Assembly: GCA_964623775.1 (NCBI GenBank)
Contig: CAZUVH010000001.1
Location: 220,784 to 284,783, forward strand
Direction: 5' to 3'
Source of the DNA: an uncultured Candidatus Saccharibacteria bacterium
GTDB taxonomy: Bacteria; Patescibacteriota; Minisyncoccia; Phycocordibacterales; UBA2100
DNA: 64,000 nt
In this document: piece after piece, positions 29,895 to 64,000 of the stretch
How the letters are laid out: each line of letters starts with the position of its first letter
Numbering within the stretch: the first letter of the stretch is position 1
Notes under the pieces: model-generated
Told to the model about the DNA's origin: nothing
The model's input: only the letters and a program-made list of their open reading frames with translations
The model's database searches: none
Position numbers and translations under genes: made by a program

Positions 29895-30764
29895 ATGGCA
29901 GAAAAAGAGACAGTGGTTGTGACAGGTGGCGCGGGGCTTATCGGCCCGAGCCTAATCGAGCTTTTGCTCAAGAAGTACCACGTGGTCTCACTCGACAATT
30001 ACTTCATCGGCAAAAAAGAGAATCATATCGAGGGTGCAGAATACGTGGAAGGGCACACGAAAGATATTGAGCAATTATTGGCGACCGTCGACCCGAAGAT
30101 TATTTTTCACCTTGGGGAGTATTCGCGCGTCGAGCAGAGCTTCGACGATCTTGAGGAAGTATGGGAGAGTAACGTGCACGGTACATTTCGCGTTTTCGAT
30201 TTTTGGCGCAAGAAAAAGTGCAAACTCGTCTATGCTGGATCAAGCACGAAATTTGCGGACGGTGGACTCGGCAGATATCAAAGCCCGTATGCATGGATGA
30301 AAGCGACCAACACGGAACTCGTTCAGAATTTTGGCAATTGGTTCAAGCTTTCATACGCGATCACATATTTTTACAACAACTACGGACCACGCGAACTCTC
30401 CGAAGGGCCGTACGCATCTGTGATCGGGAGGTTCAAGCAGCAGTATTGGGCAGGAGAGCCGATCTCAGTCGTCGCTCCTGGTACGCAGAAGCGTAATTTC
30501 ACCTATGTAGGTGATACAGCGCGTGCGCTTTTCATGATTGGAGAAGGCGGGCAAGGTGATGAGTACGGTATTGGAAGCCCGGAGTCGTATACCGTTTTAG
30601 AGATAGCAAAAATGTTCTCTGACAACATCCACATGCTTCCCGAGCGGCAGGGGAATCGCATGGATTCGGTCGTCGACACAACACGCATCGAAAAAGAATT
30701 TGGCTGGAAGCCGGAGATGACGGTACGGCAGTATATTGAGTCGCTCAAACAACGGAAGCAATAG
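29895..30764 (+). CDS. NAD-dependent epimerase/dehydratase family protein (extended SDR)
   Basis: VTGGAGLIG Rossmann motif, YAWMK (YxxxK); 289 aa. Confidence 0.7.
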   Translation: MAEKETVVVTGGAGLIGPSLIELLLKKYHVVSLDNYFIGKKENHIEGAEYVEGHTKDIEQLLATVDPKIIFHLGEYSRVEQSFDDLEEVWESNVHGTFRVFDFWRKKKCKLVYAGSSTKFADGGLGRYQSPYAWMKATNTELVQNFGNWFKLSYAITYFYNNYGPRELSEGPYASVIGRFKQQYWAGEPISVVAPGTQKRNFTYVGDTARALFMIGEGGQGDEYGIGSPESYTVLEIAKMFSDNIHMLPERQGNRMDSVVDTTRIEKEFGWKPEMTVRQYIESLKQRKQ

Positions 30765-30812
30765 TTGGCTTTAAATAGGGGTATTTTAGGTATGGACAAG
30801 CACTGTCTAATG

Positions 30813-30821
30813 TGATATAAT
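30813..30821 (+). promoter_or_regulatory. TG-extended -10 box (TGATATAAT)
   Basis: Upstream of the 30859 gene, which has a CCGGAGG SD. Confidence 0.5.
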
Positions 30822-30858
30822 ATTAAATAGTTAATTTAGACTCAAACCGGAGGCTCTC

Positions 30859-31305
30859 ATGGGCTGGCTTACACAGTCGTTCATCGCGGTCGCGTTTTTG
30901 ACGCCCGCGTGGCTTGCGATCCCGTTTTTCCAAAGGAATTTCGGGGTTTCGGCAGGCGCGTTTCTCGTCTGGTATTTCGTCGGCACATCGCTCTCGGTCG
31001 CACTCTTCGGAGTGCCCCGGCAAGCGCTCGTGCCTTCGGTACCGCTCGTGGTCGCGATCACGGTCGTCGGCTGCGTATTCGGTGGTATTGCCAACGGTTC
31101 GCTTTTCAGCGCCGTTGCCGGTGCGCCGAATCCGGGTCTTGCTGTCGCTATCTCAAATGGTGCAGCACTGACGACGTTCGTTGCCGCAGTCGTATTCTCA
31201 CGATTATGGCCGACGCACTTTGCTGCCGCGGAGTTCAGTATCCAATCACTGATCGGCGCGGTACTTATCGTCGCCGGGGCGGCACTCATCGCAATCAAAT
31301 CCTGA
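30859..31305 (+). CDS. small 4-TM membrane protein, EamA/DMT-like (ArnE/ArnF-like lipid-sugar flippase subunit candidate)
   Basis: 148 aa, four hydrophobic helices, located inside the glycan cluster; the function is inference. Confidence 0.4.
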   Translation: MGWLTQSFIAVAFLTPAWLAIPFFQRNFGVSAGAFLVWYFVGTSLSVALFGVPRQALVPSVPLVVAITVVGCVFGGIANGSLFSAVAGAPNPGLAVAISNGAALTTFVAAVVFSRLWPTHFAAAEFSIQSLIGAVLIVAGAALIAIKS

Positions 31306-31362
31306 TCAGCCTGATTTTCCAGACGCGCGAGCAGTAGCTCGCGCGTCTCTCTTCTTTTCTAT

Positions 31363-32598
31363 ATGATTACTGCAATGAAGCGTGTCCTCATCTTTTCACT
31401 CGCATACCAGCCGTACGTAGGCGGCGCGGAGATTGCGATCAAAGAGATTACGAACCGTATCGGTTCCGGTGAATATATTTTCGATCTCATTACGCTCCGC
31501 TTTGATCGCAAGCTGCCTCGCGTGGAGCGCATCGGCAATGTGAATGTGCATCGCATTGGATTTGCCGCAGATAATCCAAAAGTATCCGATCGGGCGATTC
31601 CGTTCATGCTGAGGCTCTCAAAAATCCTCTTCCCGGTGACGTCGTTCATAAAAGCAGTCTCGCTTCATCGCAGGTATAACTACAGTTTGGTCTGGGCGAT
31701 GATGGCCAATCACGCCGGATTCGGTGCTCTTTTTTTCAAGCTGATGCATCCGAAGGTGTCGTACCTGCTTGAACTACAAGACGGTAACTCACTCGAGCAG
31801 GTAAAAAAGCGACAGCCGATTCTGCGCTTCCTCTGGCCGCTCTATAGCCTTATCTACACGAAAGCCAATGCGATTAAGGCGATCTCGAAATTCATAGAAC
31901 GATTGGCACGTGATGCTGGGTATCATGGGCGCATCGAAGTCATTCCCAATGGCGTCGATACCGCAAAATTCTCAGCTCCCGTTCCCGAGAGTCGTCTGCA
32001 GGAACTGAAGGCGAGATACGGTAAACACATGGGTGACATTTTCCTCTTTACCGCCTCGCGGCTTGTGCTCTCGCGCGGCGTCGAAGACGTCATTCGCGCC
32101 CTCCGACATCTCCCGCTTGAGGTGAAATTTCTGATTGCGGGCGACGGGGAAGATCGCGACAAGTTGGAGCAAATCGCAAAAGATTGCGGCGTCGAGGGAC
32201 GTGTTATTTTTGCGGCTCATATTGAGCACAAAGATCTTCCTGCGCTTCTCAAAATCTCCGACATCTTCGTACGCCCTTCGATAATCGAGGGCATGGGCAG
32301 CGCTTTCATCGAGGCATTTGCAGCCGGCATACCGGTCGTCGCGACGCCGGTGGGCGGCATACCGGATTTCCTTTTTGATCCCGAGCGCACGCCTGGTGTT
32401 GAGCAGACAGGGGTCTTCTGCAATCCGCGCGATCCCGAATCGGTCGCACGTGCCGTCAAGCGCTACCTCGATGACCCGCAGCTTGTCGCGACCGTTGTCA
32501 AAAACGCAAAAGCGCTTGTGGACGACAAGTACGATTGGGACATGATTTCATTCGCGCAAAAAAACCTCTTTGATACTTTGATTTTGAATGGCAAGTAG
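31363..32598 (+). CDS. glycosyltransferase family 4 (GT-B)
   Basis: EGMGSAFIEAFAAGIPVVATPVGG (EX7E motif); alternative start at 31375 (MKRVLIFS). Confidence 0.8.
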   Translation: MITAMKRVLIFSLAYQPYVGGAEIAIKEITNRIGSGEYIFDLITLRFDRKLPRVERIGNVNVHRIGFAADNPKVSDRAIPFMLRLSKILFPVTSFIKAVSLHRRYNYSLVWAMMANHAGFGALFFKLMHPKVSYLLELQDGNSLEQVKKRQPILRFLWPLYSLIYTKANAIKAISKFIERLARDAGYHGRIEVIPNGVDTAKFSAPVPESRLQELKARYGKHMGDIFLFTASRLVLSRGVEDVIRALRHLPLEVKFLIAGDGEDRDKLEQIAKDCGVEGRVIFAAHIEHKDLPALLKISDIFVRPSIIEGMGSAFIEAFAAGIPVVATPVGGIPDFLFDPERTPGVEQTGVFCNPRDPESVARAVKRYLDDPQLVATVVKNAKALVDDKYDWDMISFAQKNLFDTLILNGK

Positions 32599-32617
32599 CC
32601 CATGGTAGGCTCGGTGC

Positions 32618-33616
32618 ATGAAAACGAGAAAAACAATACTCGTGACCGGAGCGGCTGGTTTTATTGGCTTCCATCTCACGCGGAGGCTTCTTAAGGACGG
32701 TTATTGTGTGGTCGGCGTGGATTGTATCTCGGACTACTATGACGTGCGTCTAAAAAACAGACGTCTAGCCATCTTAAAAAAAGAGAAGGCATTTACATTC
32801 GTAAAAAAATCCGTCGCAGATTACGCGTCGATTGACCGCATCGTAAAAAAGGTGAGACCAGATGATATCGTGCATCTCGCGGCACAGGCTGGCGTACGTT
32901 ACTCCCTCGTCAATCCTTGGATATATGCGGATGCGAACTATTTGGGCACCATGAACATGTTCGAGACGGCGCGTCGCAACAACCTTCCGCGTGTTATCTA
33001 TGCGTCATCAAGCTCAGTATACGGAGCCAACAAAGAAATGCCGTTCAAAGAGAGTGATCGGACCGATTTACCCGTCTCCATCTACGGCGCGTCAAAGCGT
33101 GGCAATGAGATTCTCGCGCGCTCGTACCATCATCTTTTTGGCCTCGAGGTTATCGGGCTCCGATTTTTCACAGTGTATGGCCCCTGGGGCAGGCCTGACA
33201 TGGCGCTCTACAAGTTCGCGCGCCGCATACTGCAGGGTCAGCCCATAGAACTCTACAACCACGGACACATGAAGCGCAGTTTTACGTATATTGATGACAT
33301 TGTGGAAGCCATTGTGAGCGTAATAAAAAGTACCCCGAAAGGACGGTATGAGCTCTACAATGTCGGTGGAGCGGAGGCTGTTTCGCTTATCAAATTCGTC
33401 CAACTCATTGAAAAAACGCTCGGCATGAAAGCAAAAAAAATAATGAAACCGCTCCAGATGGGGGATGTCCCAGAGACTGTCGCCGACACGACGAAAGCGG
33501 AGCGTGAGCTCGGCTACAAAGCCAAGACCTCGATCGAGGAGGGCATCGCACAGTTCTCAAAGTGGTTCCTTGAAAACAAGAAATTCACGCTTTCCCTGAA
33601 AGAGCCGAAGCAGTAG
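32618..33616 (+). CDS. NAD-dependent epimerase, UDP-glucuronate 4-epimerase-like
   Basis: ILVTGAAGFIGFHLTRRLL...DYYDVRLK N-terminus and YGASK catalytic motif resemble the Cap1J/LpsL-type UDP-GlcA epimerases. Confidence 0.6.
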   Translation: MKTRKTILVTGAAGFIGFHLTRRLLKDGYCVVGVDCISDYYDVRLKNRRLAILKKEKAFTFVKKSVADYASIDRIVKKVRPDDIVHLAAQAGVRYSLVNPWIYADANYLGTMNMFETARRNNLPRVIYASSSSVYGANKEMPFKESDRTDLPVSIYGASKRGNEILARSYHHLFGLEVIGLRFFTVYGPWGRPDMALYKFARRILQGQPIELYNHGHMKRSFTYIDDIVEAIVSVIKSTPKGRYELYNVGGAEAVSLIKFVQLIEKTLGMKAKKIMKPLQMGDVPETVADTTKAERELGYKAKTSIEEGIAQFSKWFLENKKFTLSLKEPKQ

Positions 33617-33625
33617 GATTAGGCA

Positions 33626-34612
33626 ATGCGGGTTGTTATTGCCACAGGAATTTATCCCCCCGAAGTAGGGGGTCCCGCACTGTATGCGCAGGGGGTCGAG
33701 CGTGCTCTCGTGGAGATGGGACACATAGCACCACGTGTCGTATTCAGTGCTTTGAAAAAATATCCCCCCGGGATACGACATTTGGTGTATTTATGGAAGC
33801 TCTTTTTCATGGCGCGCGGAGCTGATGCCATTTTCGCGTTCGATACATTTAGTGCCGGAGTCCCGGCAGCACTGGTGGGTTCGATACGTCGCATACCAGT
33901 CGTTGTTCGGGTGGGAGGGGATTTCGTCTGGGAACATTATATTGAGCGTACGCATGAGCGTATGCCGCTCTCAGAATTTTATCGCAGTAAGCGACCACTC
34001 AACTGGACAGAACGAATCGCTTTTTACCTCGTGAGCTGGATGATCGGTCGCTCAAAGCTTGCATTTAATACCGAGTGGCTTCTCGAGATTTGGCGCGAGC
34101 CGTATCGAATACAAGCTTCACGTGCAGTTGTGGCCCCCAATGTGATCGGCGAGCGCCTGCCGTCTATTGGGACAGATAATACGATATTGCTTTACGGTAG
34201 AAATATTGCGCTCAAGAATTCCGATGCTTTCAAGCGTGCGTTTGAAAAAGCACGCTCGCACGGCGTTACCCTTGAGCTCGAAGAGGGCAGAGTTACGCAC
34301 GAAGAACTGATAGAACGAATTCGACATGCCTATGCGATTGCGGTACCTTCGATATCTGATGTCGCGCCGAATACGGTCATTGATGCGATACGCTGCGGCA
34401 AGCCTTTCATTCTCACGAAATACTCCGGATATGCCGAACGTTTCGGTCGACTTGGTGTAGTGGTCGACCCATTGTCCGAGGACGATATGGCAGAAGGTAT
34501 CAAGAAGATTGCGGATGACGAGACCTACAAATCCCTTGCGTCACGCATCGCAGATTTCAAGGAGGTGCGCACCTATAGAGACGTCGCGGAAGAGTTTCTC
34601 AAGCTCCTCTAG
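33626..34612 (+). CDS. glycosyltransferase (GT-B fold, GT1/GT4-like)
   Basis: Two-Rossmann-domain organisation and co-location in the cluster; divergent sequence. Confidence 0.45.
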   Translation: MRVVIATGIYPPEVGGPALYAQGVERALVEMGHIAPRVVFSALKKYPPGIRHLVYLWKLFFMARGADAIFAFDTFSAGVPAALVGSIRRIPVVVRVGGDFVWEHYIERTHERMPLSEFYRSKRPLNWTERIAFYLVSWMIGRSKLAFNTEWLLEIWREPYRIQASRAVVAPNVIGERLPSIGTDNTILLYGRNIALKNSDAFKRAFEKARSHGVTLELEEGRVTHEELIERIRHAYAIAVPSISDVAPNTVIDAIRCGKPFILTKYSGYAERFGRLGVVVDPLSEDDMAEGIKKIADDETYKSLASRIADFKEVRTYRDVAEEFLKLL

Positions 34613-35340
34613 TTTGTTTTGTGAGCCTTGATGATGAGGCCCGTCCCAATGAAGGAAAGTATTGAGTGATCAAGTTTTTCGAATATTTTTGATTGAAGAA
34701 CGGTCGTTCGGTGAAATATACGGTCAAGCGGATAGGGGATGAGCTTGAAATTGTAATAGATCGAGTAGTCGGTCGCGAAACCATTTTCCGAAAGTAGTGC
34801 GACTGCGCGGCTCATTGTGTATTCGCGATGTGTCACGCTACCAGGTCTCGGGCCCTTAAAAAGTCGTACGACCCAGAGAAGTATTCGGTTAAAGGCGCGA
34901 TACGGGCTTGTGTAATTCGGGAAGGTGATTATAAGGGTGCCGTTTGGCTTCAGGATACGCGAAGCCTCTTTGAGAAATTTATTTTCGTCCTCGAGGTATT
35001 CAATAAGTCCCATAGCGGTCGCGATGTCGAATCGGCTGTCCTCAAATGGTAATTCGTACGCATCGCCAACAACCGCTTCTACGTCAGGAAATTCCTCTTT
35101 AGCCCTTGCTATCATTTCGGGCGCCGCGTCGACACACGCGACCGTACAGCCTTTGTCACGGAGCGCTTGTACCATGACCCCGGGGCCCGACGCGATATCA
35201 ACGACGCTTTTCCCGTCTTCAACAAGCGCAAGCACTTTTTCGCGACGTACCCGAAATTGGTAACCCTCCGCCGTTTCTCGCTCGTATTCTGCACGGTACG
35301 CCCTACTTTTTTTATTGAAATACGTTACTTCGTTTCGCAT
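34609..35340 (-). CDS. class I SAM-dependent methyltransferase
   Basis: VVDIASGPGVM motif I and LKPNGTLIITFPN motif; convergent 4-nt overlap with the upstream GT. Confidence 0.7.
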   Translation of the reverse strand: MRNEVTYFNKKSRAYRAEYERETAEGYQFRVRREKVLALVEDGKSVVDIASGPGVMVQALRDKGCTVACVDAAPEMIARAKEEFPDVEAVVGDAYELPFEDSRFDIATAMGLIEYLEDENKFLKEASRILKPNGTLIITFPNYTSPYRAFNRILLWVVRLFKGPRPGSVTHREYTMSRAVALLSENGFATDYSIYYNFKLIPYPLDRIFHRTTVLQSKIFEKLDHSILSFIGTGLIIKAHKTN

Positions 35341-36310
35341 ATTTTTTCAGTGATTTCAAAAATAATCTCACACCTGAGGCTATTGCTGCAAATGCTGGCG
35401 TGTCGTCCGACATATCCATGACCATGCGTCGGAGCCGGTACCTTTTTGTATCTTTTGTATTAGTGCCCTCAAGGGTTGTAAGGGCGTGTGTAAACCGGCC
35501 CTCTTCGAGCACGCGCTCAACAGTATCATTCCAATCGCCCGGTTGCCCGTTGGGGTAGGCAAACACGCCCGAGAGAGTCACGCCTTCCGACTCAAGCGCC
35601 TCCTTGGATCCGCTGATTTCACTTCGGACACACTCCGTTGATTCAAGAGAAAGGATGGGGTGACTTTTTGTGTGAGCTCCATATGTAATGGAGTGGTCCG
35701 CCATTTCCAGTATTTCTTCATGCGCGAGAGGGGCGTATACAGCTCGGTCGCCACTGAAGTCGGTGAGTGCCGCCCCGGACTCTTTTTCAAAGGATTGGAG
35801 GCGCGCTTCGCGCTCATCGGTCGATAGTTTCTTCAGCTCATTTCGCAAGCGAATGTCGAGCCGGATCTTCTCGGCACTACTCTCTGACCGCATCCCGGTT
35901 GCATATTCGAGTCGATCGACCCAGAGAGGTTTTTTCCCGAGCACAAAATCGGTTGCGAGAAACATCGTCGCGGGAACACCGATATCTTTCAAAATGGGAA
36001 ACGCGTGCGTATAAAAATTACGATAACCGTCGTCGAACGTGATTACGAGTGAATACGGCGGAAGTGTGCCAGTTTCCATTCGCGAGATCGCGTCATCGAG
36101 ACCCAGAATCGTATAGTGTCGCCTGAAGTAGTGTACCTGTCTTTCAAAATGCTTTGGTGCGATGAACTTGCCGCGATAATTGTAGATGCCCGGTCCCTTT
36201 TGCGGAGCCACACCGTGATAGAGTAGGATGGTTAACTCATGCCTATGGACGAATCGAAGCACAGCGGCGAAGCCCGTATAGAAGAACATAATGAGAAGAA
36301 AACGCCCCAT
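35312..36310 (-). CDS. polysaccharide deacetylase (carbohydrate esterase family 4, NodB homology)
   Basis: ITFDDGY motif 1 and AHTKSHP His motif; overlaps the downstream methyltransferase by 29 nt. Confidence 0.75.
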   Translation of the reverse strand: MGRFLLIMFFYTGFAAVLRFVHRHELTILLYHGVAPQKGPGIYNYRGKFIAPKHFERQVHYFRRHYTILGLDDAISRMETGTLPPYSLVITFDDGYRNFYTHAFPILKDIGVPATMFLATDFVLGKKPLWVDRLEYATGMRSESSAEKIRLDIRLRNELKKLSTDEREARLQSFEKESGAALTDFSGDRAVYAPLAHEEILEMADHSITYGAHTKSHPILSLESTECVRSEISGSKEALESEGVTLSGVFAYPNGQPGDWNDTVERVLEEGRFTHALTTLEGTNTKDTKRYRLRRMVMDMSDDTPAFAAIASGVRLFLKSLKKYAKRSNVFQ

Positions 36311-37396
36311 TCCTCGGATAGTATCCCATTTTCACTCATTTCAGTAGGCACAGAGACTGCGCTTTTCGATCGGCAATCACGCGTGCGCGAGCGTATTCTC
36401 ATGTACGCAAGACGATTCAAAAAAACCGACATGATCGTTATGTGCGGTCGCCGGTATGCAAAAGAACATGTCGGATCCGTCACCCTTCATCCCACGAATT
36501 CGTACACGCCGCCCCTCAGATTGCTCGATGCAGTTAGGATCGGCCGCACGATCAGGGGTGCGGACATTGTCACCACACAAGACCCTTTCGAGACCGGCCT
36601 CGCCGCATGGATCATCGCGCAAGCGAAAGGATTGCCACTCCATGTACAGGTTCACACTGATCTTTTTTCGCCCGCGTACGGTGCACTCAACCTGAAGAAT
36701 CGTATTCGCGTCAAAATAGCGAGATTTGTGCTACGGAGGGCCACGCGCATCCGCGTCGTATCAGCACGAATAAAACGATCAATTGAAGAGCAACTCAGCC
36801 CGACAGCCACCATTACCGTTTTACCGATATTCACCGATATCGAGCGGTTTAAACATGCGCCGTTTGATCGTGATTTGATTCAACGATTTTCCGCATTCAC
36901 CAAAAAAATTCTGGTGGTGTCACGGCTCGAGCCGGAAAAGAACGTCGCGCTCGCGATCCGGTCATTTGCAATGGCAGCGCCGAAAGACGCGTGCCTCATT
37001 ATTGTCGGCGGCGGCACTCTTCGCGCTTCACTCGGGAAAACGGTAGCCGAACTTAAAATAGCCAACCGCGTCTTTTTCGAAAATCCGGCCGATGTTGCGC
37101 TGTACTATAAACTGGCCGATCTTGTCCTCGTACCGTCTCACTACGAAGGATATGGCCTTGTCGTTTTGGAAGCGCTCGCGGCAGGCAAGCCGGTTCTTTC
37201 GACTGACGTCGGTGTTTCAAGAGAGTCAGGGGCACTTATCGCTACACGCGACACTTTTGCGGATTCTCTCCGAGAATGGTTTAAAAGCGGCCCTCGAGTG
37301 GGTCATATGGGGCCGTACCCATACAGAAATTTCGAAGAATACGTAAGTGCATATTGTGAAGATATTGCGGCGTGCATGAGCGGAAAAGGAAAATAA
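36239..37396 (+). CDS. glycosyltransferase family 4
   Basis: EGYGLVVLEALAAGKPVLSTDVG (EX7E); the listed start overlaps the divergent deacetylase start by 72 nt, so the true start may be internal (for example M at 36401). Confidence 0.7.
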   Translation: MPMDESKHSGEARIEEHNEKKTPHSSDSIPFSLISVGTETALFDRQSRVRERILMYARRFKKTDMIVMCGRRYAKEHVGSVTLHPTNSYTPPLRLLDAVRIGRTIRGADIVTTQDPFETGLAAWIIAQAKGLPLHVQVHTDLFSPAYGALNLKNRIRVKIARFVLRRATRIRVVSARIKRSIEEQLSPTATITVLPIFTDIERFKHAPFDRDLIQRFSAFTKKILVVSRLEPEKNVALAIRSFAMAAPKDACLIIVGGGTLRASLGKTVAELKIANRVFFENPADVALYYKLADLVLVPSHYEGYGLVVLEALAAGKPVLSTDVGVSRESGALIATRDTFADSLREWFKSGPRVGHMGPYPYRNFEEYVSAYCEDIAACMSGKGK

Positions 37397-43305: not shown

Positions 43306-43341
43306 CTTTTCATCCTGGTCGTAGTGCGCTACGCTGACGCA

Positions 43342-56839: not shown

Positions 56840-57814
56840 TCACTTCGTCAGGAAAATTCTCCAACTCATGCCTCGTCGTTGCGTCACTTGGTATTGGCTG
56901 ATTCCAGCTGACTCTAGCCAATCAGTGATATTGTCGCGCGAGATGTAGTGCGTGATCGGGGTGATCAATTGGTCGTAGGGGGTATTCCAAATTTCTTTGA
57001 AAGGGAAGTCGAACCACATATGCACATATGCAGCCATTGGCAGTTTTTCATACAGCTTCGGTGCTATGGCATGAATCGGTCGATAAACGAGTTTCGTTAC
57101 AAGGTATACCGGGAGTGTGATGAACCACGAGATAATGAGCAGCAGTCCCTCCGGTATTTTTGAGGTCACGTACCTTCGTAAAGGCTCGACGGTGTAGCGG
57201 ACAAGTCCGGTTCCCTCGTAGCCGTATACCCATACCGACATTGAGCCGCCTGGTTTGACCAGCGATACAAGTTTTAGAAAACCCTCTTTGGGATCTGGTA
57301 GGTGATGAAGCACTCCTACGCTGTATACATAATCAAAGCTCTCGGGTTTGAAGGGAAGTCGTCGTATGTCGCCGCGGATCAGTTGAATTTTTTCCGGATG
57401 CTTCGCGTGTGTGGGGATGTAGCGACGGGCGGACGCGATTGATCCCGTGCCGTAGTCAACCGCCGCGATCATCCTTGCACCAAAACTTTCGGCGATTACG
57501 GAGTGTTTACCCTTTCCGCACCCGGCGTCGAGCACTAATTTGTCTTTAAAAAACTCTGGCTTGACCGGATGTATCCAATCCAAGAACTGATCCCTGTATA
57601 TATCGTAATTATCGTCAAATTTTTCCCACTCATATCCAAATCTCTCGGCAGTCAGACTGCTTTGATCCTGGATTTCGTCCGGCACCATCATTGGCACTCC
57701 TTCTGTCACAGGGAAAGTTGAACTACAGTTACCGCATACGAACACCCCGCTCCCCATACGAAGATCACCCCTGCATTTCGGACAAGCAATCAGATCGATT
57801 ATTTCCTGTGTCAT
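56840..57814 (-). CDS. class I SAM methyltransferase with N-terminal Trm112-like zinc ribbon
   Basis: CPKCRGDL...CGNC zinc-ribbon; VLDAGCGKG motif I; LVKPGGSMSV. Confidence 0.65.
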   Translation of the reverse strand: MTQEIIDLIACPKCRGDLRMGSGVFVCGNCSSTFPVTEGVPMMVPDEIQDQSSLTAERFGYEWEKFDDNYDIYRDQFLDWIHPVKPEFFKDKLVLDAGCGKGKHSVIAESFGARMIAAVDYGTGSIASARRYIPTHAKHPEKIQLIRGDIRRLPFKPESFDYVYSVGVLHHLPDPKEGFLKLVSLVKPGGSMSVWVYGYEGTGLVRYTVEPLRRYVTSKIPEGLLLIISWFITLPVYLVTKLVYRPIHAIAPKLYEKLPMAAYVHMWFDFPFKEIWNTPYDQLITPITHYISRDNITDWLESAGISQYQVTQRRGMSWRIFLTK

Positions 57815-57899: not shown

Positions 57900-59651
57900 C
57901 TACTGCGCCGGCTTTATGGCTAGCACCACCTGATCGATGTCGCCTACGAGAGACCAATTCGTAGTCATTGACTCCGCGCCGGCAGAGGAGGCAGCGTTCT
58001 TTTGTGAGCCCGTATTTGGACCGAGGAAATCAAGATCTCGGAAGAAATACGTCTGCGACTCGCTGGTGCCGTACGTGGACACTACAACGTCCTGATTGGC
58101 TTGCGCGTTAGGACCGGCATAATATCCGGTACCGAGCAGCAAGTCTTTTCCAACTGTAGTTGTTACATTAGTAGTTTGCGAAGAAGTTATATTGCCATTG
58201 TAGGTAACCTTATAATCGTCCACTGGATTCGTTTGGGCTGCATTGTGGAGAGTCATAACGTAATAATTCAGAGTATATCCACCCGAACCATCCGTATAGG
58301 AAACACTAAACTGACCTGATGTAGGATTTGTCAGATACCCCATTGCCCATCCAGCACGATTCGACGTACCTGTTGCGGTCACAATCGTGAGACTTTGCCC
58401 ATTGAGCATTGCAGACGGAAGCCCCGCAGAGAGTTGAGAGCCCGTGGCGAATATTGCTACGAATAATTTGCTCGCGCCTCCTGATGGAACCGTGTAGCTG
58501 AACGATTGTGTGGTCGTCCCAGTCTTTTGATGAGCAGTGAATGGAAGATCGTCCATGATAGAGGGGGGTGCATCAATGGTCGCCGAAACGGTATTACTGT
58601 ACGCAGATTCTCCAGCAAGTCCTAACGCACGGACTTTGTAATAGTACGTTCCATTCGCAAGACCTGGATCAATATATGTTGTTACATTCGGGCTTGTTGT
58701 CGCGATTTGAGACATTGAACTTGTCGAGAGGCCGCGTTCGATAGAGTAGGCGATTTCGACTCCCGAATTGTCTGTCCAATTAAGGATTACGTTTGTTGAA
58801 GATGCCGTGGCCGTAAGGTTCGTGGGTAAAGCTATTATCGTAGTTGTCGTGGCGTAGTTGCTGTAATTTGAGTATGCGCCTGAATTAAACGTGCGGACAC
58901 GATGATAGTATGTAGTACCCTCGCTCAATCCTAAATCGAAGTATGTGGTAACACCCGCGCTTGTTGTTGCGACCGCAGTCCAATTCACGACGTCAGTGCT
59001 TCTCTCTAAATTAAAGCCGTCCTCAACCGTGCTGTTGTCATCCCACGTTAATCGGATCATAGATGTTGATGTGGAAAGACCAGATAAATTGGAGGGTGCG
59101 GTAAGAGGAGAGTATGTGATGACAGTGCTCAGCCGTGAAAGTCGCGCGCCCTTTGTGCTTGATGTAAGTACCGCACCAGTCTCAAGAGTTGAACCAGAAG
59201 ATTTTACATGCGAGAGGCTGCTAAAAGTGGTTGTGCTAAGTTCTACAGGCGTAGTGCCGGTGAGAGAATAGCTTCCCGAGTCGGCGCTATTTACTCCATT
59301 GAACCGATAGAAAACGTTCATTACGGGATTCGTGCCGCCAGCATTTGCGCGGGAGGCGCACGGTTTGATTGCGATTGCCGTAATTACTGCACCGTTGGGT
59401 ATGGATGTGAGACTCACGCCGTAAGAGTCACGATTCCCAATAGTGTTCGTTGAATTGTGGTCCGTCGTACCGTTGCAGGTAGTTTCATCCACAAGCACGA
59501 AATGCGACGAACCCGTTTTTGGAGTCCATTGCGTGTAAAAACCATCGGACGTTGGCATGAGAGTTCCGCTCGTCGCTGCTGAGACAACCGATGCTGTGAA
59601 AAACGCTAGTAAAGCGATGCCTGAGATTCCGCCGATATGTTTTTTATTCAC
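57900..59651 (-). CDS. secreted Ser/Thr-rich protein with two fibronectin type III domains
   Basis: Signal peptide (GISGIALLAFFTASVVSAAT); FN3 repeats (IRLTWDDNSTVEDGFNLERS...YYHRVRTFN and ILNWTDNSGVEIAYSIERG...YYYKVRALG); GTG start; 583 aa. Confidence 0.6.
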   Translation of the reverse strand: MNKKHIGGISGIALLAFFTASVVSAATSGTLMPTSDGFYTQWTPKTGSSHFVLVDETTCNGTTDHNSTNTIGNRDSYGVSLTSIPNGAVITAIAIKPCASRANAGGTNPVMNVFYRFNGVNSADSGSYSLTGTTPVELSTTTFSSLSHVKSSGSTLETGAVLTSSTKGARLSRLSTVITYSPLTAPSNLSGLSTSTSMIRLTWDDNSTVEDGFNLERSTDVVNWTAVATTSAGVTTYFDLGLSEGTTYYHRVRTFNSGAYSNYSNYATTTTIIALPTNLTATASSTNVILNWTDNSGVEIAYSIERGLSTSSMSQIATTSPNVTTYIDPGLANGTYYYKVRALGLAGESAYSNTVSATIDAPPSIMDDLPFTAHQKTGTTTQSFSYTVPSGGASKLFVAIFATGSQLSAGLPSAMLNGQSLTIVTATGTSNRAGWAMGYLTNPTSGQFSVSYTDGSGGYTLNYYVMTLHNAAQTNPVDDYKVTYNGNITSSQTTNVTTTVGKDLLLGTGYYAGPNAQANQDVVVSTYGTSESQTYFFRDLDFLGPNTGSQKNAASSAGAESMTTNWSLVGDIDQVVLAIKPAQ

Positions 59652-59864: not shown

Positions 59865-60539
59865 TCAGGCGCTGTCGCGCCAATCAAGGTACGCGAGGAC
59901 GGTTTCCGCATCCACGAGATCGCCTTTTTCGTGATACGTATGGATTCTCCGTATCTCTTTCGCGATCACGTCGGACCGTTTAGCCGAAGGCTCATTCTGG
60001 GAGTGCTTCATCGGCTCGTTCCAATCGAGTGGACAGCCGACCTGGTTGTAAACTTTCAGCTCCGGGTACTCTTTCAAGAGAACGGACACAACGGTGATGA
60101 AGGCACGGAGTTGGTGGAAGGGCGTGGCGGTAATGATTATCTTTTTCCAACCCTTTTCTTTAATGTAATTCACCATCGCGGTCAATTCCGTCAGTGTGTT
60201 GGCCGGTCCGCGAACGTCGAACGATTCGACGGTAGGAATGTCGATATCGGAACGATCTAGTTTATCCATCCAAACGGATGCTCCAGCATATCCGCACATT
60301 TCTTCTGTTGCATCGATGTTGTTGGAGACGACCAGTCGGCCGATGGGGCTCGAGCCGCAATGTCTGTCGAGGACAGAATTTTCATTGTCGCGCGTTTGTG
60401 CGACAAGATACGCAGCATCGGGTCTACCTGTTGACCACGGGTAAGGATCGCTCATCACTCGGATGGCGAGTTCCGTTAGTTTCGATTCGTTGATCACGTC
60501 GCTCTCCGCTGATCTGAAGTGGCAAAATTCTGCGTGCAA
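59865..60539 (-). CDS. YdcF/DUF218 (ElyC/SanA-like) family protein
   Basis: 224 aa; the central region resembles DUF218 proteins associated with envelope polymer synthesis; low confidence. Confidence 0.35.
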   Translation of the reverse strand: MHAEFCHFRSAESDVINESKLTELAIRVMSDPYPWSTGRPDAAYLVAQTRDNENSVLDRHCGSSPIGRLVVSNNIDATEEMCGYAGASVWMDKLDRSDIDIPTVESFDVRGPANTLTELTAMVNYIKEKGWKKIIITATPFHQLRAFITVVSVLLKEYPELKVYNQVGCPLDWNEPMKHSQNEPSAKRSDVIAKEIRRIHTYHEKGDLVDAETVLAYLDWRDSA

Positions 60540-60559: not shown

Positions 60560-61348
60560 ATGTCAAGTTATAGATTGATATTACACAAGGAGTCAGCTAG
60601 AATCCGCTGCATGTGGAACAACAAGTCGGTATCCGTGGTGATGCCGACATATCGCGAAAAAGACTCCATCAAAGCGAAGATCGAGGACTTTTTGGCTACC
60701 GGATTGGTAGACGAAGTGATCGTTTGCAACAACAATGCCGAGGCGGGTACTGATGATGAAATTCGGAAAATCAAATCCGATAAGATCAAAATTATATATG
60801 AAAAGAGGCAAGGTTATGGGTATGCACTGCAGTCGGCGCTTCTCGGTGCGACAGGAGATCTCGTCGTAAGTATCGAGCCCGATGCGACGTATATAGGGAA
60901 GGACTTGAAGCGATTTCTCGTCCTCTCGGAAGATTTTCCAGTCGTTTTCGGTTCCCGAGTCATTAGGAAAACAATCAATCCCGAATGGGGTTATTGGCGC
61001 CGCGAGGTGAACTTTCTATACGGCACACTCATCCATCTTTTATTTAACACAAACACGATCACTGATATCGGGTGTACGTATAAATTAATGAAACGAGAAG
61101 TGATCCATGCGCTCGCGCCGCATTGGCGACATGGCTCGTCTCTTTTTGCGACTGAGCTCTTGCTACTGACGATAGCAAAGGGCAACAAGTTCATAGAGAT
61201 ACCGGTGACTTTTGAGGCGCGCGTCGGCGGCTCCTCGGTAATCGGCAGTAATTGGAAGTTGGCCAAGCTTGGCCTGGAAGGGTTGTGGCAGATCGTTGCG
61301 GCCTGGGTCAGATGGCTGATCCATGGTAAAAATCTGGAACATGTGTAG
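60560..61348 (+). CDS. glycosyltransferase family 2, polyprenyl-phosphate sugar synthase (DPM1/GtrB-like)
   Basis: VSVVMPTYREKD, DxD-type region in DLVVSIEPDATY; ~250-aa catalytic domain without a long TM tail; alternative start ATG 60611. Confidence 0.7.
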   Translation: MSSYRLILHKESARIRCMWNNKSVSVVMPTYREKDSIKAKIEDFLATGLVDEVIVCNNNAEAGTDDEIRKIKSDKIKIIYEKRQGYGYALQSALLGATGDLVVSIEPDATYIGKDLKRFLVLSEDFPVVFGSRVIRKTINPEWGYWRREVNFLYGTLIHLLFNTNTITDIGCTYKLMKREVIHALAPHWRHGSSLFATELLLLTIAKGNKFIEIPVTFEARVGGSSVIGSNWKLAKLGLEGLWQIVAAWVRWLIHGKNLEHV

Positions 61349-62888
61349 CATCGCGGGAATCATCGGAGGAACTGGCGTCGACAAGATGCTTGCGGTCCAG
61401 ACGCATCGTGCGCCTGACGAAAGCGGTGTCTATCGCGAAAAAAATCTGGAGCTCGGCATGGGCCGTCTCAAGATCATCGATCTGAAGTCTCCAGGTCTTT
61501 CACCGTACCAAGAGGATGGGTACGTGCTGTGCTACAACGGCGAAATCTACAACTATATCGAGCTCAAAAAAGATCTTGAAAAGCTTGGGTGGAAATTCCA
61601 TACAACGTCCGACACTGAGGTGTTGATGAAGTCGTGGCGCGAGTGGGGAGTGAAGATGTTCGACAAGCTCAACGGCATGTTCGCGTTTGCGATCTACGAC
61701 CCCAAGAAGAAGAAATTGCTGCTCGGACGCGATATCGCGGGCGAGAAGCCGTTGTATTACTATCATCGTGGAAATAAATTTGTATTTACTTCCGAAGCAA
61801 AGGCGCTTCCAGAGGTACTTGATTTGAAGCCGAGAGAGGACGAATTTTTTGAAGCCTTCCAGCACTGCTTCGTGACGACGCTCTGGAAAGATGTGATGGA
61901 ACTGCCACCCGCACACTATCTCGAATACGATATCGCCAAGAATTCAAAAAAGATCGTTGAATACTGGAAATTCGTGCCGCGTGCAATCAATTTGAAGACG
62001 GTACAGGAGGAGCTTGAAAGTCTTCTTGAGGATTCCGTAAAGCTTCGTTTTCGAAGCGATGTTCCTGTCGGGATCTATTATTCCGGCGGTATCGACTCTT
62101 CGCTCATCGATACATTTCATACGTACGACCACAAATTCTACTTTGACAATACTGCGAAAGGGATGGAGAAAGAATTTTTCAGCAAAATTCCACAGGTGCT
62201 CCACCACCTCGATTTCCCCGTCGGGTCATTCGGATTCTTCGGCATGTGGAAGCTGGCCGAAATGGCGAGTAAAAAAGTGCGCGTGATCATCTCCGGTGAA
62301 GGCGCCGACGAACTTTTTGGCGGATACGTACGATATTTGCCGATTGCTCGCGAATACGAGCTTCGTAAAAAATTTCCTTCCTACAATTATCTCTTCGGTA
62401 AATATTTCAATGACGATTACCTCACGGCCTTTGCCAAGATTACGGCGCGCAATGACAATGTGGATTTTGTAAAGGAGAAATTGCGTCCCTATTTTGAAAT
62501 GTTCGACGATCCGGTCAATGCGATGGGTTTTGCCGATTTCAAGCTGATCTTTCCGAGTCTCCTCCAGATGGGCGATCGTATGGCGGGCGCCTTTGGGATC
62601 GAAAATCGCTGCCCATTTCTTGACCGCCGTCTTATCGAATTCGGCTTCAGCTTGCCGCCGGAATATAAGATTGATACTCTTGAGCCGAAGGTCCTGCTGC
62701 GACGGATCGCGGAGAAGCGTGGCTTGGTAGAGCCGCTCCGTATGGAAAAACGCGGCATGTCTGTCCTCTACAACAAGTGGAAGGGCATTCCGGGCTGGGA
62801 TCGCACGCACTACTTCGAATTTCTCAAATCTACATGGCACAAAAATCATCAAAAAAAACAGTCGGGAAGAAAGGGAAGGTCCTCGTAA
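61341..62888 (+). CDS. asparagine synthase (glutamine-hydrolysing) family amidotransferase
   Basis: MCSIAGIIGG N-terminal nucleophile Cys; YYSGGIDSS PP-loop. Confidence 0.75.
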   Translation: MCSIAGIIGGTGVDKMLAVQTHRAPDESGVYREKNLELGMGRLKIIDLKSPGLSPYQEDGYVLCYNGEIYNYIELKKDLEKLGWKFHTTSDTEVLMKSWREWGVKMFDKLNGMFAFAIYDPKKKKLLLGRDIAGEKPLYYYHRGNKFVFTSEAKALPEVLDLKPREDEFFEAFQHCFVTTLWKDVMELPPAHYLEYDIAKNSKKIVEYWKFVPRAINLKTVQEELESLLEDSVKLRFRSDVPVGIYYSGGIDSSLIDTFHTYDHKFYFDNTAKGMEKEFFSKIPQVLHHLDFPVGSFGFFGMWKLAEMASKKVRVIISGEGADELFGGYVRYLPIAREYELRKKFPSYNYLFGKYFNDDYLTAFAKITARNDNVDFVKEKLRPYFEMFDDPVNAMGFADFKLIFPSLLQMGDRMAGAFGIENRCPFLDRRLIEFGFSLPPEYKIDTLEPKVLLRRIAEKRGLVEPLRMEKRGMSVLYNKWKGIPGWDRTHYFEFLKSTWHKNHQKKQSGRKGRSS

Positions 62889-63757
62889 CAGGGGCCTCCG
62901 GTTTCATTGCTTCTACATTGATACCCGCTTTTTTGAAGGCGGGTTATGAGGTTACGGGTATCGATCGGCTCGATTGCGAGCATATCCCGAAGCAAAAAGG
63001 ATTTACGTTTAAAAAGATGGACGTCGCCGATCTCGATTCGGTCAAAGGATTTGATTATGTGGTCAGTCTCGCTTTCGCGACGAATATCCCAAAGTCAATT
63101 CTCGATCCGGTCGGTACGACCTACAACAACCTCGATCTCGGTGTGAAAATACTTGAGCTTTCAAGAGAGGCGGGAGTAAAGAAATTCATCTATCCGTCTA
63201 CCGCTTCACTCTATGGCAATCAACCGCTTCCGTGGAAAGAAGACATGAAAGTGTATCCGAACGAGCCGTACTCGCTTCAGAAATACGCTATGGAGCGATT
63301 TTGCGAATACTATGCGAATACGAGGGGATTACCGACCGTTGTCTTCCGACTCTTCCAAGTATTCGGTGAAAATCAGAGAAACGATACGGCGCTGTACAAG
63401 TTTTACCAGTGCCGCAAAGAGGGTAAGCCGATCCCGATTACACAGACGACCGCGCAGGCCGGCTTCAAGGGCGCAAAAAGAGATTTCATCTACACGGGAG
63501 ACATTGCTGAGGCATTCATGATGGCGATGGAATCAGACAGGGTGGGCAAGGGGGAGATTATCAATCTTTGTTCCGGCTACAACTACACGATTCGCGAGGT
63601 CGCAGAATTGATCAGTGATAAAATTGAATTCATTCCAAAGCGCGGATTTGAACTCGACGAGCATCTTGGGACGCCAGCAAAGGCAAAGAAGCTGCTCGGC
63701 TGGAAGGCGCACACGGATATCAAGGATTGGATGAAGCGATACGTGAAAACCATTTAA
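62834..63757 (+). CDS. NAD-dependent epimerase/dehydratase family protein
   Basis: VLVTGASGFIAS, YSLQK (YxxxK); the start overlaps the asnB-like 3' end by ~55 nt. Confidence 0.65.
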   Translation: MAQKSSKKTVGKKGKVLVTGASGFIASTLIPAFLKAGYEVTGIDRLDCEHIPKQKGFTFKKMDVADLDSVKGFDYVVSLAFATNIPKSILDPVGTTYNNLDLGVKILELSREAGVKKFIYPSTASLYGNQPLPWKEDMKVYPNEPYSLQKYAMERFCEYYANTRGLPTVVFRLFQVFGENQRNDTALYKFYQCRKEGKPIPITQTTAQAGFKGAKRDFIYTGDIAEAFMMAMESDRVGKGEIINLCSGYNYTIREVAELISDKIEFIPKRGFELDEHLGTPAKAKKLLGWKAHTDIKDWMKRYVKTI

Positions 63758-63776
63758 TACCTAACATGCTTACACA

Positions 63777-64000
63777 CTACGATTATTGCCGGATGTGTGG
63801 CTCGAAGAAGCTATCGAAGTTTCTTGATCTTGGCGATCAGCCACCTCCAAATCGCAATATACCGCCGAATTCGTGGCAGAAAGAGCCGGAACCGATTTAT
63901 CCTCTGCAGGTGTGGTTTTGTCACGACTGCGCACTCGTTCAGCTATGCGATATACCCTCGAAAGAAGAGATGTTCAGTGATTATCAATTTCTCTCGACTG
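63777..64000 (+). CDS. C-methyltransferase-like protein with N-terminal zinc-binding domain, partial (3' end beyond window)
   Basis: CRMCGSKKLSKFLDLGDQPP...YPLQVWFCHDCALVQL matches the putative-zinc-binding N-domain of sugar C-methyltransferases (TcaB9/NovU type). Confidence 0.5.

Follow-up and report, generated by a model that had tools for sequence, protein, structure and literature searches.

A probable surface-glycan locus spanning 44 kb or more of a Patescibacteria genome, with a candidate pentofuranose three-component system

Gene content and extent of the locus

The window analysed here is a stretch of 64,000 nucleotides from an uncultured Candidatus Saccharibacteria bacterium (Patescibacteria; GenBank assembly GCA_964623775.1, contig CAZUVH010000001.1, positions 220,784 to 284,783 of the forward strand), which from position 29,895 to its end carries a cluster of genes related to glycan synthesis, transfer and modification. 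Open reading frames (ORFs) of at least 100 amino acids (aa) between 29,895 and 64,000 were scanned against Pfam and NCBIfam, yielding 29 genes (g01–g29), one small peptide and an incomplete last gene (Table 1). Glycan-related domains were detected in 27 of the 29 ORFs, only the membrane protein g02 (148 aa) and g26 (210 aa) being left without assignment, and the glycan-gene density of the region is far above chance. An initial annotation, made from the sequence alone, had described almost all genes from 29.9 kb onwards as glycan-related, which this count bears out.

Five extended short-chain dehydrogenases/reductases (SDRs; g01, g04, g13, g19 and g29) score above the Pfam threshold, and seven proteins carry a family 4 glycosyltransferase (GT4) domain (g03, g05, g08, the C-terminal half of g09, g10, g17 and g20); the initial counts of five SDRs and of six or seven GT4 or GT-B enzymes were thus accurate. 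Likewise above threshold are other enzymes named at that stage, i.e. the CE4 deacetylase g07, the FkbM-family methyltransferase g18, the AsnB-type protein g28, the carbamoyltransferase g14, and three methyltransferase domains besides FkbM, two of which are free (g06, g24) and one fused in g14. No GT4 or SDR of the cluster reaches an NCBIfam equivalog cut-off, and therefore no sugar specificity can be assigned to them.

The cluster continues past the window end (position 64,000; distances marked with a plus sign are counted from there and were read on the Logan contig L001, which is identical to the window over 11,167 overlapping nucleotides with 0 mismatches). This contig adds ten glycan genes followed by an ABC exporter, in the order sugar C-methyltransferase, PseC/ArnB-like aminotransferase, GT4, DUF6165-like ORF, methyltransferase, GT9 heptosyltransferase-like protein, 23S-rRNA-IVP, ADP-heptose-6-epimerase-like SDR (245 bits, cut-off 275), GmhA-like isomerase, HldE-domain-I-like kinase and ABC_membrane+ABC_tran exporter, the gene of which starts at about +9.6 kb. 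The full C-methyltransferase gene encodes Methyltransf_13 and Methyltransf_14 domains. The locus therefore spans at least 44 kb, continuing at least 9.7 kb past the window: the size of about 34 kb given initially was that of a real cluster truncated by the window edge and is thus a minimum, and the statement that no wzx, wzy or ABC exporter gene is evident is true of the window only. Neither a Wzx/Wzy nor an ABC-2 Wzm/Wzt pair was found from 29.9 to 64 kb, and in the next 9.7 kb the only candidate of this kind is the ABC_membrane+ABC_tran gene. The continuation also includes, within the glycan cluster, the gene for a 23S-rRNA-intervening-sequence protein (L001 17203–17574, about +6.0 kb), and its GmhA-like isomerase (L001 18674–19642, about +7.5 kb) is extended at its N-terminus by about 135 aa that match no family.

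Gaps from g08 through g13 measure 4–54 nt, an operon-like packing, and nine strand switches occur in the cluster. GC content is flat (0.48–0.53) across cluster and flanks, on which ground an origin as a foreign island was rejected. The upstream 30 kb are ordinary, coding for MurA, tRNA-Leu, a Cache/HAMP sensor, a ClpB-like protein, two TrwB-like ATPases, MurD, MurC and RsmI. The encoded proteins have exact copies on database contigs, and each is single in its 90 % cluster. All named homologs are from Patescibacteria (Kaiserbacteria, Paceibacterota, Zambryskibacteria, Uhrbacteria and Peregrinibacteria), those from Kaiserbacteria sharing 71 % identity with g09 and 50–52 % with g11. Judged by these homologs, the genome is placed in the vicinity of Kaiserbacteria.

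Proposed lipid-linked pentose and hexose branches

Three adjacent genes, g11–g13, match the pentofuranose three-component system described for Citrobacter youngae (Kelly et al. 2024, PMC11127046) and would extend it to Patescibacteria; a literature search returned no paper linking this group with decaprenyl-phosphoryl-5-phosphoribose (DPPR) synthase or a pentofuranose system. The g12 product has the HAD-then-UbiA domain order of C. youngae ORF15, which makes undecaprenyl-P-ribofuranose from phosphoribosyl pyrophosphate (PRPP; Kelly et al. 2024, PMC11127046). It passes the cut-off of NF008978 (decaprenyl-phosphate phosphoribosyltransferase; 212.6 bits, cut-off 207) and of Pfam UbiA (71.9 bits, cut-off 34.2), and stays under those of the sister models NF008977 (187.8 against 234) and NF008976 (178.3 against 474); its HAD domain is recognized below threshold as YqeG-type HAD-IIIA (33 bits) and Hydrolase_like. 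Among 24 homologs, D21 and D23 (the D21xD23 nucleophile motif), G24 and T25 are invariant in the HAD domain, as are N209-D210-x2-D213-x3-D217 (loop II, NDxxDxxxD) and R327/E330 (loop IV) in the UbiA domain. The spacing is identical to that of N247/D248/D251/D255 and R366/E369 of ORF15, residues which, together with D18, the counterpart of the HAD nucleophile, were mapped by mutagenesis and in vitro assay (Kelly et al. 2024, PMC11127046). The UbiA domain is furthermore 38–40 % identical to mycobacterial UbiA/DPPR synthases. By its sequence, g12 thus matches a polyprenyl-phosphoribose synthase with every published catalytic residue kept, and the lipid-pentose module suspected initially is supported.

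Directly downstream, g13 encodes an SDR that carries the motifs GGAGFLG and YGKAK (at residues 14 and 140, respectively) and has no transmembrane (TM) segment. In Citrobacter, the single SDR ORF13 turns lipid-linked ribofuranose into xylofuranose (Xylf), and systems with ORF13 homologs make Xylf, those with DprE1/DprE2 arabinofuranose (Araf; Kelly et al. 2024, PMC11127046). Neither DprE1 (FAD_binding_4+ALO) nor DprE2 (classical adh_short SDR) is among the window ORFs put to Pfam; outside the candidate phyla radiation (CPR), DprE1-like genes neighbour UbiA in 10 of the loci and DprE2-like genes in 9. An ORF13-like role as epimerase of polyprenyl-P-ribofuranose is proposed for g13, and the pentose of its product may, by the same analogy, be xylofuranose.

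Related loci (L003–L018) were fetched for comparison, L003, L005 and L006 being close relatives with 67–87 % protein identity. Orthologs of g13 adjoin UbiA in 14 of 15 CPR loci and in one metagenome-assembled genome (MAG) labelled as a Spirochaete (L027). Across the CPR loci they are 62–83 % identical, as against only 36–70 % for the adjacent UbiA, and they keep this level in lineages where the genes around them share no more than 36–45 %; for this strong constraint on the UbiA-adjacent SDR across L003–L018 no explanation was found. An HMMER scan of 1.84 billion representatives with g13 returned 434 clusters at E<=1e-30 with a smooth gradient of identity, one of them from Paenibacillus (50–52 % identity). 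The recurrence of g13-type SDRs with UbiA in CPR, the Spirochaete-labelled MAG and Paenibacillus supports a role of g13 on the UbiA product. The corresponding operon of Paenibacillus silvae (GCA_003248275.1, L088 2802–10053) comprises aldo-keto reductase, UbiA (30 % identical to g12), Polysacc_synt flippase, two GT2s, SDR and EEP phosphatase, and no GT-C; it may represent a variant pentose pathway in a culturable Gram-positive. Phage and plasmid collections, searched for relatives of ORF12 and ORF13, gave UbiA-domain matches only, none covering the HAD fusion.

For g11, Pfam PMT_2 scores 21.6 bits, below the threshold of 26.1; about half of its homologs carry PMT_2. A PDB sequence search with g11 and g21 gave no match at E<=1, so that structure prediction was needed. 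The AlphaFold model of g11 (pLDDT 93.6, pTM 0.92) comprises about 11 TM helices and a C-terminal alpha/beta domain, and without exception its top 37 Foldseek matches in the PDB are GT-C enzymes or subunits of membrane glycosylation complexes with a GT-C fold, among them ArnT (TM-score 0.60), AftB (TM-score 0.61, rmsd 5.8), PglB/STT3/AglB, DPY19 and ALG9/12. Since significant matches are to GT-C only and transporters reach TM-scores of only about 0.1, the possibility raised with the initial annotation that its three GT-Cs are unrelated transporters fails for g11, the predicted fold of which confirms a GT-C enzyme; g21 and g23 pass PMT_2. D39-D40 after TM1 is invariant in an alignment of 40 homologs, and the invariants D40, Y43, Y44, H69, R344 and Y347 resemble the CAZy GT136 (ORF12) residues D31, E34, Y35, H106, R349 and Y350, a resemblance noted without alignment of the two. 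An ortholog of g11 lies directly upstream of the UbiA gene in L005, L006, L009, L014 and L018, and g11 is proposed to be a pentofuranosyltransferase.

A second branch would use a hexose. The closest solved relatives of g27, the only GT2, are Pyrococcus DPMS (5mlz, E 1.4e-7) and ArnC in a PDB sequence search; its best NCBIfam matches are to dolichyl-P-hexose transferase and AglJ (about 53 bits against cut-offs of 325–375), and it has no TM segment, a C-terminal membrane anchor being typical of GtrB/ArnC/DPM1-type GT2s. In agreement with the GT2 polyprenyl-P-sugar synthase expected initially, g27 is proposed from these similarities to be a polyprenyl-phosphate hexose synthase. A candidate flippase for polyprenyl-P-sugars is g22, flanked by the PMT_2-family GT-Cs g21 and g23, the assignment of which combines the Pfam match with 9–10 hydrophobic segments. 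The former has about 10 such segments, D52-E53 in the first loop, a sub-threshold match to the true GT39 PMT domain (17.3 bits against 22.7) and orthologs in L003, L005 and L006; the latter is weakly paralogous to g21, with a D/E-rich first loop and orthologs in L006 and L007. Both loop motifs were read from single sequences. The GtrA, GT-C and GT2 genes are not contiguous, g27 lying 3.8 kb away behind g23–g26.

Links between these parts are found in distant CPR relatives. The GT2 of L007 (Zambryskibacteria), 43 % identical to g27, is set between a GT4 and the GT-C/UbiA/SDR block; in a MAG labelled 'Saccharibacteria' (L009 7813–10011), GT2 and a g11-like GT-C form one ORF of 732 aa, possibly by assembly error; and the orthologs of g08 in L007 (5193–6743) and L009 (5284–6852) are GT4s with a C-terminal GtrA fusion (516–522 aa). 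Such fusions support a functional link between the parts.

Of the two GtrA proteins named initially, one (g22) is located between 29,895 and 64,000. When all six reading frames of the window were searched with the GtrA HMM, a single further ORF came up at 21298–21837 (-), 8 kb outside this range and probably the second GtrA meant; this stand-alone gene (61 bits) is located beside RsmI and an unassigned protein of 615 aa. The membrane protein g02 is a speculative flippase candidate: no Pfam or NCBIfam match was obtained even at E<=5, no relative exists among the fetched loci, and its assignment as GtrA-, EamA- or SMR-like was rejected by Pfam at E<=5 and BLASTP. In L018 (6711–7085) and five other CPR loci, a 124-aa EamA/SMR-like protein is encoded between the GT-C and UbiA genes, and the UbiA of such loci lacks the HAD domain, an arrangement fitting the SMR-type flippase of published systems. 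The window holds no counterpart of this protein, and g02 has no similarity to the L018 ORF.

Table 1. Predicted genes of the cluster within the window (window coordinates; SAM, S-adenosylmethionine)
Gene	Coordinates	Strand	Predicted product	Basis
g01	29895..30764	+	Extended SDR epimerase/dehydratase, 289 aa	Pfam Epimerase 125.7 bits
g02	30859..31305	+	Small membrane protein, 148 aa, 4-5 hydrophobic segments	Hydropathy
g03	31363..32598	+	GT4, first gene of CPR-wide core	Glycos_transf_1 123 bits
g04	32618..33616	+	Extended SDR, 332 aa	GDP_Man_Dehyd 206 bits, Epimerase 193 bits
g05	33626..34612	+	Divergent GT4, 328 aa, core gene	Glycos_transf_1 40.4 bits (cut-off 26.4)
g06	34609..35340	-	Class I SAM methyltransferase	Methyltransf_11 83.5 bits
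g07	35312..36310	-	CE4 polysaccharide deacetylase, N-terminal membrane anchor	Polysacc_deac_1 65.8 bits
g08	36239..37396	+	GT4, core gene	Glycos_transf_1 89.7 bits
g09	37451..39409	+	Truncated UDP-glucose-dehydrogenase-like module fused to GT4	Pfam
g10	39414..40451	+	GT4, core gene	Glycos_transf_1 50 bits
g11	40458..41993	+	GT-C fold membrane glycosyltransferase, 511 aa	AlphaFold and Foldseek
g12	42013..43305	+	N-terminal HAD phosphatase and UbiA-type polyprenyl-phosphate 5-phosphoribosyltransferase (PRP-PPPRS, ORF15 type)	NCBIfam
g13	43324..44379	+	Cytoplasmic extended SDR	Pfam Epimerase 135.6 bits
g14	44376..47219	-	NodU-like carbamoyltransferase-SAM methyltransferase fusion, 947 aa, variable module	Pfam: Carbam_trans_N 299.7, Carbam_trans_C 242, Methyltransf_11 80 bits
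	47239..47388	-	DUF5989-like membrane peptide, 49 aa, beside carbamoyltransferase	Layout near-identical to PF19451 ORF of L003
g15	47403..47774	-	SxtJ-like small membrane protein, 123 aa	SxtJ 20.3 bits, sub-threshold
g16	47819..49066	+	Membrane-anchored protein, 415 aa, possibly SGNH/GDSL-like	Lipase_GDSL_2 18.9 bits (cut-off 32.9)
g17	49056..50174	-	GT4	Glyco_trans_1_4 75 bits
g18	50276..51151	+	FkbM-family methyltransferase	Methyltransf_21 55.4 bits; TIGR01444 106.5 bits (cut-off 37.7)
g19	51175..52170	+	Extended SDR	Pfam; 84 % identical in L005 and L006
g20	52167..53261	+	GT4	Glycos_transf_1 106 bits; gene call on identical contig
g21	53239..54906	+	GT-C (PMT_2) membrane glycosyltransferase, 555 aa	PMT_2 42 bits (cut-off 26.1)
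g22	54890..55366	+	GtrA-family protein, 158 aa	GtrA_DPMS_TM 53.5 bits (cut-off 26.1)
g23	55387..56835	-	GT-C (PMT_2) membrane glycosyltransferase, 482 aa	PMT_2 32.4 bits (cut-off 26.1)
g24	56840..57814	-	SAM methyltransferase, N-terminal Trm112p-like zinc ribbon	Methyltransf_11 66.6, Trm112p 25.4 bits
g25	57900..59651	-	Secreted FN3-repeat protein, 28 % Ser+Thr	fn3 30.4 bits, 2 repeats
g26	59865..60497	-	Protein of 210 aa, no family	Gene call; no Pfam/NCBIfam match
g27	60611..61348	+	Soluble GT2, DPM1/ArnC-like, displaced core gene	Glycos_transf_2 61.8 bits
g28	61323..62888	+	AsnB-type glutamine amidotransferase	TIGR01536 343.8 bits (cut-off 267.1); Pfam
g29	62834..63757	+	Extended SDR, 307 aa	Epimerase 161.6 bits; exact product on three contigs
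	63766..64000	+	Sugar C-methyltransferase, 5' end (409 aa on full contig)	Zinc-ribbon N-terminus

Conserved core, variable modules and further genes

A shared backbone is kept in L003, L005 and L006, comprising counterparts of g01/g03, g05 and g08 (fused there), g09, g10, g11, g12 and g13, with g11 absent at the corresponding position in L003. After g13, L003 proceeds to the carbamoyl module, and L005 and L006 straight to g17–g21. In distant CPR the order is TrwB-like ATPase, GT4, GT4, GT4(-GtrA), GT4, GT2, GT-C, (HAD-)UbiA, SDR. With the backbone kept and the later modules differing, the locus is a mosaic of a core (four GT4s, GtrA, GT2, GT-C, PRP-PPPRS and SDR), syntenic across distant CPR and common to lineages labelled Kaiserbacteria-like, Zambryskibacteria and Saccharibacteria, and of variable modules: among genomes with about 70 % protein identity, the carbamoyl module, the FkbM/SDR/GT4/GT-C block and others are present in some and absent from the rest. 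Such expansion of a core resembles, by analogy, that of serotype-determining loci. As one conserved unit, the supercluster proposed initially holds for the core only; the independent variation of the modules is in part the splitting across relatives that had been named as speaking against it.

Among the core GT4s, orthologs of g03 (38–77 % identical) lie right after the TrwB-like gene in L003, L007, L008, L009 and L013. The protein g05 matches the N-terminal half of a double GT4 of 734–769 aa in L003 and L005 and is a separate GT4 in L007–L009. The GT4 half of g09 has a paralog in g10 (32 % identity), the orthologs of which in CPR loci are 36–58 % identical. The N-terminal module of g09 (37451–38320), overlooked initially, consists of the NAD-binding and central domains of UDP-glucose dehydrogenase (UGDH), aligns to residues 91–319 of the Klebsiella enzyme and keeps the catalytic Cys motif GGHCFIKD, the UDP-binding C-terminal domain being absent. 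Foldseek with its AlphaFold model (pLDDT 86.5) matched UGDH and the GT4 HepE, and the fusion is kept at 651–676 aa in L003, L005 and about 50 database proteins. Modules of this type are widespread in Patescibacteria (55–79 % identity), where they either stand alone (361–378 aa) or form fusions, the partner being one of two different GT4s, an extended SDR (about 604 aa) or a UDP-GlcNAc-2-epimerase domain.

A soluble TrwB/TraD-like ATPase of 744 aa, devoid of TM segments, is encoded just upstream of the cluster (25905–28139), and a second TrwB-like ATPase at 9236–10510 (-). Orthologs preceding the GT4 core are 87 % identical in L003 and 65–68 % in L007, L008, L009 and L013, which carry Zambryskibacteria or 'Saccharibacteria' labels. 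A lamin-tail-domain protein (28117–29049) has hydrophobic segments at its N- and C-terminus and is therefore likely surface-anchored; an extremely acidic protein of 504 aa without family is encoded at 12408–13922 (-).

Turning to further genes, g01 reaches no NCBIfam equivalog and is matched in L003 by an ortholog of 77 % identity in the corresponding place, and g04 stays under every equivalog cut-off. The pair g06/g07 is an opposite-strand insertion specific to this genome, g06 being absent at the equivalent position in L003 and L005. The nearest NCBIfam relatives of g07 are PgaB and IcaB, below cut-off, and with a hydrophobic segment at residues 4–22 it probably acts outside the membrane. 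A 74 % identical ortholog of g14 occurs in L003 and none in L005 and L006; the peptide following it, also missed initially, and g15, whose 56 % identical ortholog adjoins the carbamoyltransferase in L003, are the usual small partners of this enzyme. The SGNH hydrolase named initially (g16) is a weak assignment: its GGDS motif and N-terminal membrane anchor (hydrophobic segment at residues 12–30) agree with such an enzyme, its domain score is sub-threshold; L003 has a 58 % identical ortholog. The g17 ortholog in L005 and L006 (70 % identical) directly follows the SDR, and the best match of g19 is dTDP-glucose 4,6-dehydratase, below threshold (TIGR01181, 194 bits against 365). The secreted protein g25, likewise absent from the initial annotation, has a signal-like hydrophobic segment at residues 6–24 and is possibly a glycoprotein acceptor or a glycan-binding surface protein. 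An enrichment of N-glycosylation sequons in g25 was rejected, as 13 N-x-S/T sequons compare with 11 expected from composition.

Proposed assembly, alternatives and relation to known systems

With a probability of roughly 0.55, the region is read as most of a surface-glycan locus of at least 44 kb of Patescibacteria, the product being a cytoplasmically assembled, ABC-exported glycan to which pentofuranose and hexose side groups are added outside the membrane. From family and fold assignments, catalytic residues and synteny we infer the substrates, the donor-to-GT-C pairings, the role of the exporter and the acceptor in the following scheme. In the cytoplasm, nucleotide sugars would be modified by seven SDRs, the UGDH-like module, the PseC/ArnB-like aminotransferase, the C-methyltransferase, the AsnB-type amidotransferase, the carbamoyltransferase-methyltransferase and the ADP-heptose pathway. 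Seven or eight GT4s and the GT9 would then build the glycan on a lipid carrier at the inner membrane face, probably for export by the MsbA/PglK-type ABC exporter encoded past the window end. Outside the membrane, the three GT-Cs would draw on polyprenyl-phosphate monosaccharides: g12 is predicted to make polyprenyl-P-ribofuranose from PRPP, its HAD domain removing the 5-phosphate, g13 to epimerise it to another pentofuranose (xylofuranose, if Citrobacter is a guide) and g11 to transfer this pentofuranose, while g27 would make a polyprenyl-P-hexose that g22 helps to flip and g21 and g23 transfer. The membrane-anchored CE4 and SGNH-like enzymes may finally edit acyl groups. The central idea of the initial annotation, extracytoplasmic glycosylation from lipid-linked monosaccharides by GT2, GtrA and GT-C, survived each test run.

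Several points weigh against this reading. From 29.9 kb to +9.7 kb, neither a priming phosphoglycosyltransferase of the WecA/WbaP type nor a polymerase, ligase or LCP enzyme was found, so that the cytoplasmic GT4 steps are connected to a lipid carrier by assumption. The exporter, known solely from precomputed Pfam matches to a gene that the locus end truncates, belongs to the ABC_membrane type and not to Wzm/Wzt. Beside g12 there is neither a MATE nor an SMR flippase, and g02 has no family. As orthologs of g11 are adjacent to GT2 and in one MAG fused to it, g11 could use a hexose donor instead of a pentose; the identity of the pentose is itself a guess from likeness to Citrobacter ORF13. Finally, the independent variation of the modules from relative to relative would also be compatible with more than one product.

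This last point leads to an alternative in which several independent pathways, with at least two products, came to lie side by side through genome compaction and repeated hot-spot insertion, the parts being the conserved CPR core, the carbamoyl/methyl sugar module, the FkbM/SDR/GT4/GT-C block and the heptose/GT9 block. The carbamoyl module present in L003 and missing from L005/L006, where the FkbM block directly follows g13, the opposite-strand insertion of g06/g07 between two GT4s that form one fused gene in relatives, the displacement of the core GT2 by 17 kb from its core neighbours and the nine strand switches would all fit such an island. Mosaic structure, however, is also typical of single-product serotype loci, the genes are tightly packed throughout, and the single GT2, the single GtrA of the cluster and the single exporter candidate, with no priming enzyme, would not be enough to make several pathways self-sufficient, so that we regard this explanation as improbable. 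Protein O-glycosylation is likewise judged unlikely. Here, g21, g23 and possibly g11 would act like actinobacterial Pmt and transfer single sugars from donors made by g27 and g12/g13 to Ser/Thr of secreted proteins, candidate acceptors being g25, pilins or an S-layer protein. Pilin arabinosylation by Pseudomonas aeruginosa TfpW (TfpW/decaprenyl-phosphoarabinose, DPA) sets a precedent for the pentose branch, g21 shows the GT39 PMT match given above, homologs of g11 are named 'glycosyltransferase family 39' by NCBI, and g25, with its signal-like N-terminus and Ser/Thr-rich composition, lies between the GT-C genes and the GT2. Yet PMT_2 is broad and includes ArnT-like lipid and glycan transferases, and the seven GT4s, the GT9, the CE4 enzyme and the ABC exporter speak for an oligo- or polysaccharide product and not for the modification of proteins by single sugars; g25 shows no sequon enrichment and has no ortholog among the related loci fetched, and FN3 proteins of Patescibacteria are interpreted in the literature as glycan-binding.

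A secreted exopolysaccharide (EPS) or capsule for attachment to host cells, in place of a wall- or membrane-anchored polymer, appears very improbable: g07 is indeed nearest to the PgaB and IcaB deacetylases of secreted poly-GlcNAc, and predicted EPS genes affect fitness in one cultivated Patescibacteria species according to the literature, but Pfam detected neither a synthase-type GT2 with membrane domains nor homologs of PgaA/PgaC, Wza/Wzc or Wzx/Wzy from 29.9 to 64 kb and on L001. An O-antigen, from which the initial annotation had set its own reading apart, is not applicable as an alternative in a Patescibacteria genome.

An exported glycan decorated outside the membrane can be related to several described systems. 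The Citrobacter prototype unites HAD-PPPRS, SDR epimerase, GT-C and flippase in a GT4-rich, methyltransferase-containing, ABC-transporter-dependent O-antigen cluster. Besides the domain order and catalytic residues of the synthase, it shares with the present locus a cytoplasmic GalE-like SDR encoded alongside (as g13) and a GT-C of about 11 TM helices in which TM1 is followed by an acidic motif and the C-terminus bears an additional domain (as g11). In contrast to Citrobacter, the only flippase candidates here are g22 and g02, none being of the MATE/SMR type next to the synthase, the C-terminal domain of the modelled g11 is alpha/beta rather than a beta-rich carbohydrate-binding module, the host has no outer membrane or O-antigen, and the module belongs to a lineage-wide conserved core rather than to a serotype-specific add-on. 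With the mycobacterial decaprenyl-phosphoarabinose pathway (UbiA/Rv3806c, Rv3807c, DprE1/DprE2, Rv3789, Emb/Aft), the locus has in common a downstream GT-C, AftB being among the best fold matches of g11, and a GtrA-family flippase candidate; cytoplasmic GT4s, a polyprenyl-P-sugar GT2 and GT-Cs follow the logic of lipomannan/lipoarabinomannan synthesis. It differs by the missing DprE1 and DprE2 among the window ORFs, by a fused HAD phosphatase in place of the separate Rv3807c, which is unrelated to HAD-family enzymes (Kelly et al. 2024, PMC11127046), and by small GT-Cs (482–555 aa) without large Emb-type domains.

The Gtr (GtrA/GtrB/GtrC) and Arn (ArnC/ArnEF/ArnT) systems likewise combine an ArnC/DPMS-related GT2, a GtrA protein and the ArnT-like GT-C fold seen in g11, whereas the GT2 here, located at a distance of about 4 kb from GtrA and its GT-Cs, has no membrane helices, the GT-Cs number three, a second donor derives from PRPP, and the acceptor cannot be lipopolysaccharide. 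Actinobacterial Ppm1/Pmt shares the soluble DPM1-like GT2, a PMT_2-family GT-C and a Ser/Thr-rich secreted protein nearby; true PMT (GT39) is not reached, and many additional Leloir glycosyltransferases and sugar-tailoring enzymes are encoded here. GT4s, nucleotide-sugar genes and an ABC exporter also characterize ABC-dependent O-polysaccharide and Gram-positive S-layer glycan (slg) clusters; heptose genes occur as in some S-layer glycans, and the methyltransferases could cap chains (FkbM, WbdD-like logic). The exporter is, however, an ABC_membrane half-transporter, not Wzm/Wzt, and no WsaB/WaaL-type ligase or priming enzyme was found. Every component thus belongs to a described enzyme family, and no new principle is involved.

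Patescibacteria form a large part of bacterial diversity, and their cultivated members live attached to other cells. To our knowledge, their surface chemistry is essentially uncharacterised. In work on cultivated members, mention is made solely of FN3 surface proteins and of EPS genes that are not further specified. Interest in the present locus arises from its CPR-wide core, from the size of a locus that occupies at least 44 kb in a genome so compact, and from its tightly conserved SDR, for which the Paenibacillus operon, with an SDR of 52 % identity, offers a culturable model of the least understood step. Tentatively, and as a doubtful though possible extension, the core may encode a Patescibacteria-wide envelope glycopolymer that receives pentofuranose on the outer side of the membrane and would be functionally equivalent to teichoic acids or mycobacterial arabinan. 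The variable modules would then provide strain-specific decoration governing host and phage recognition, and the SDR would epimerise lipid-linked ribose as a single protein, independently of DprE1/DprE2. In any case, the core shared across CPR lineages provides a specific candidate, open to testing, for a surface glycan that these lineages have in common.

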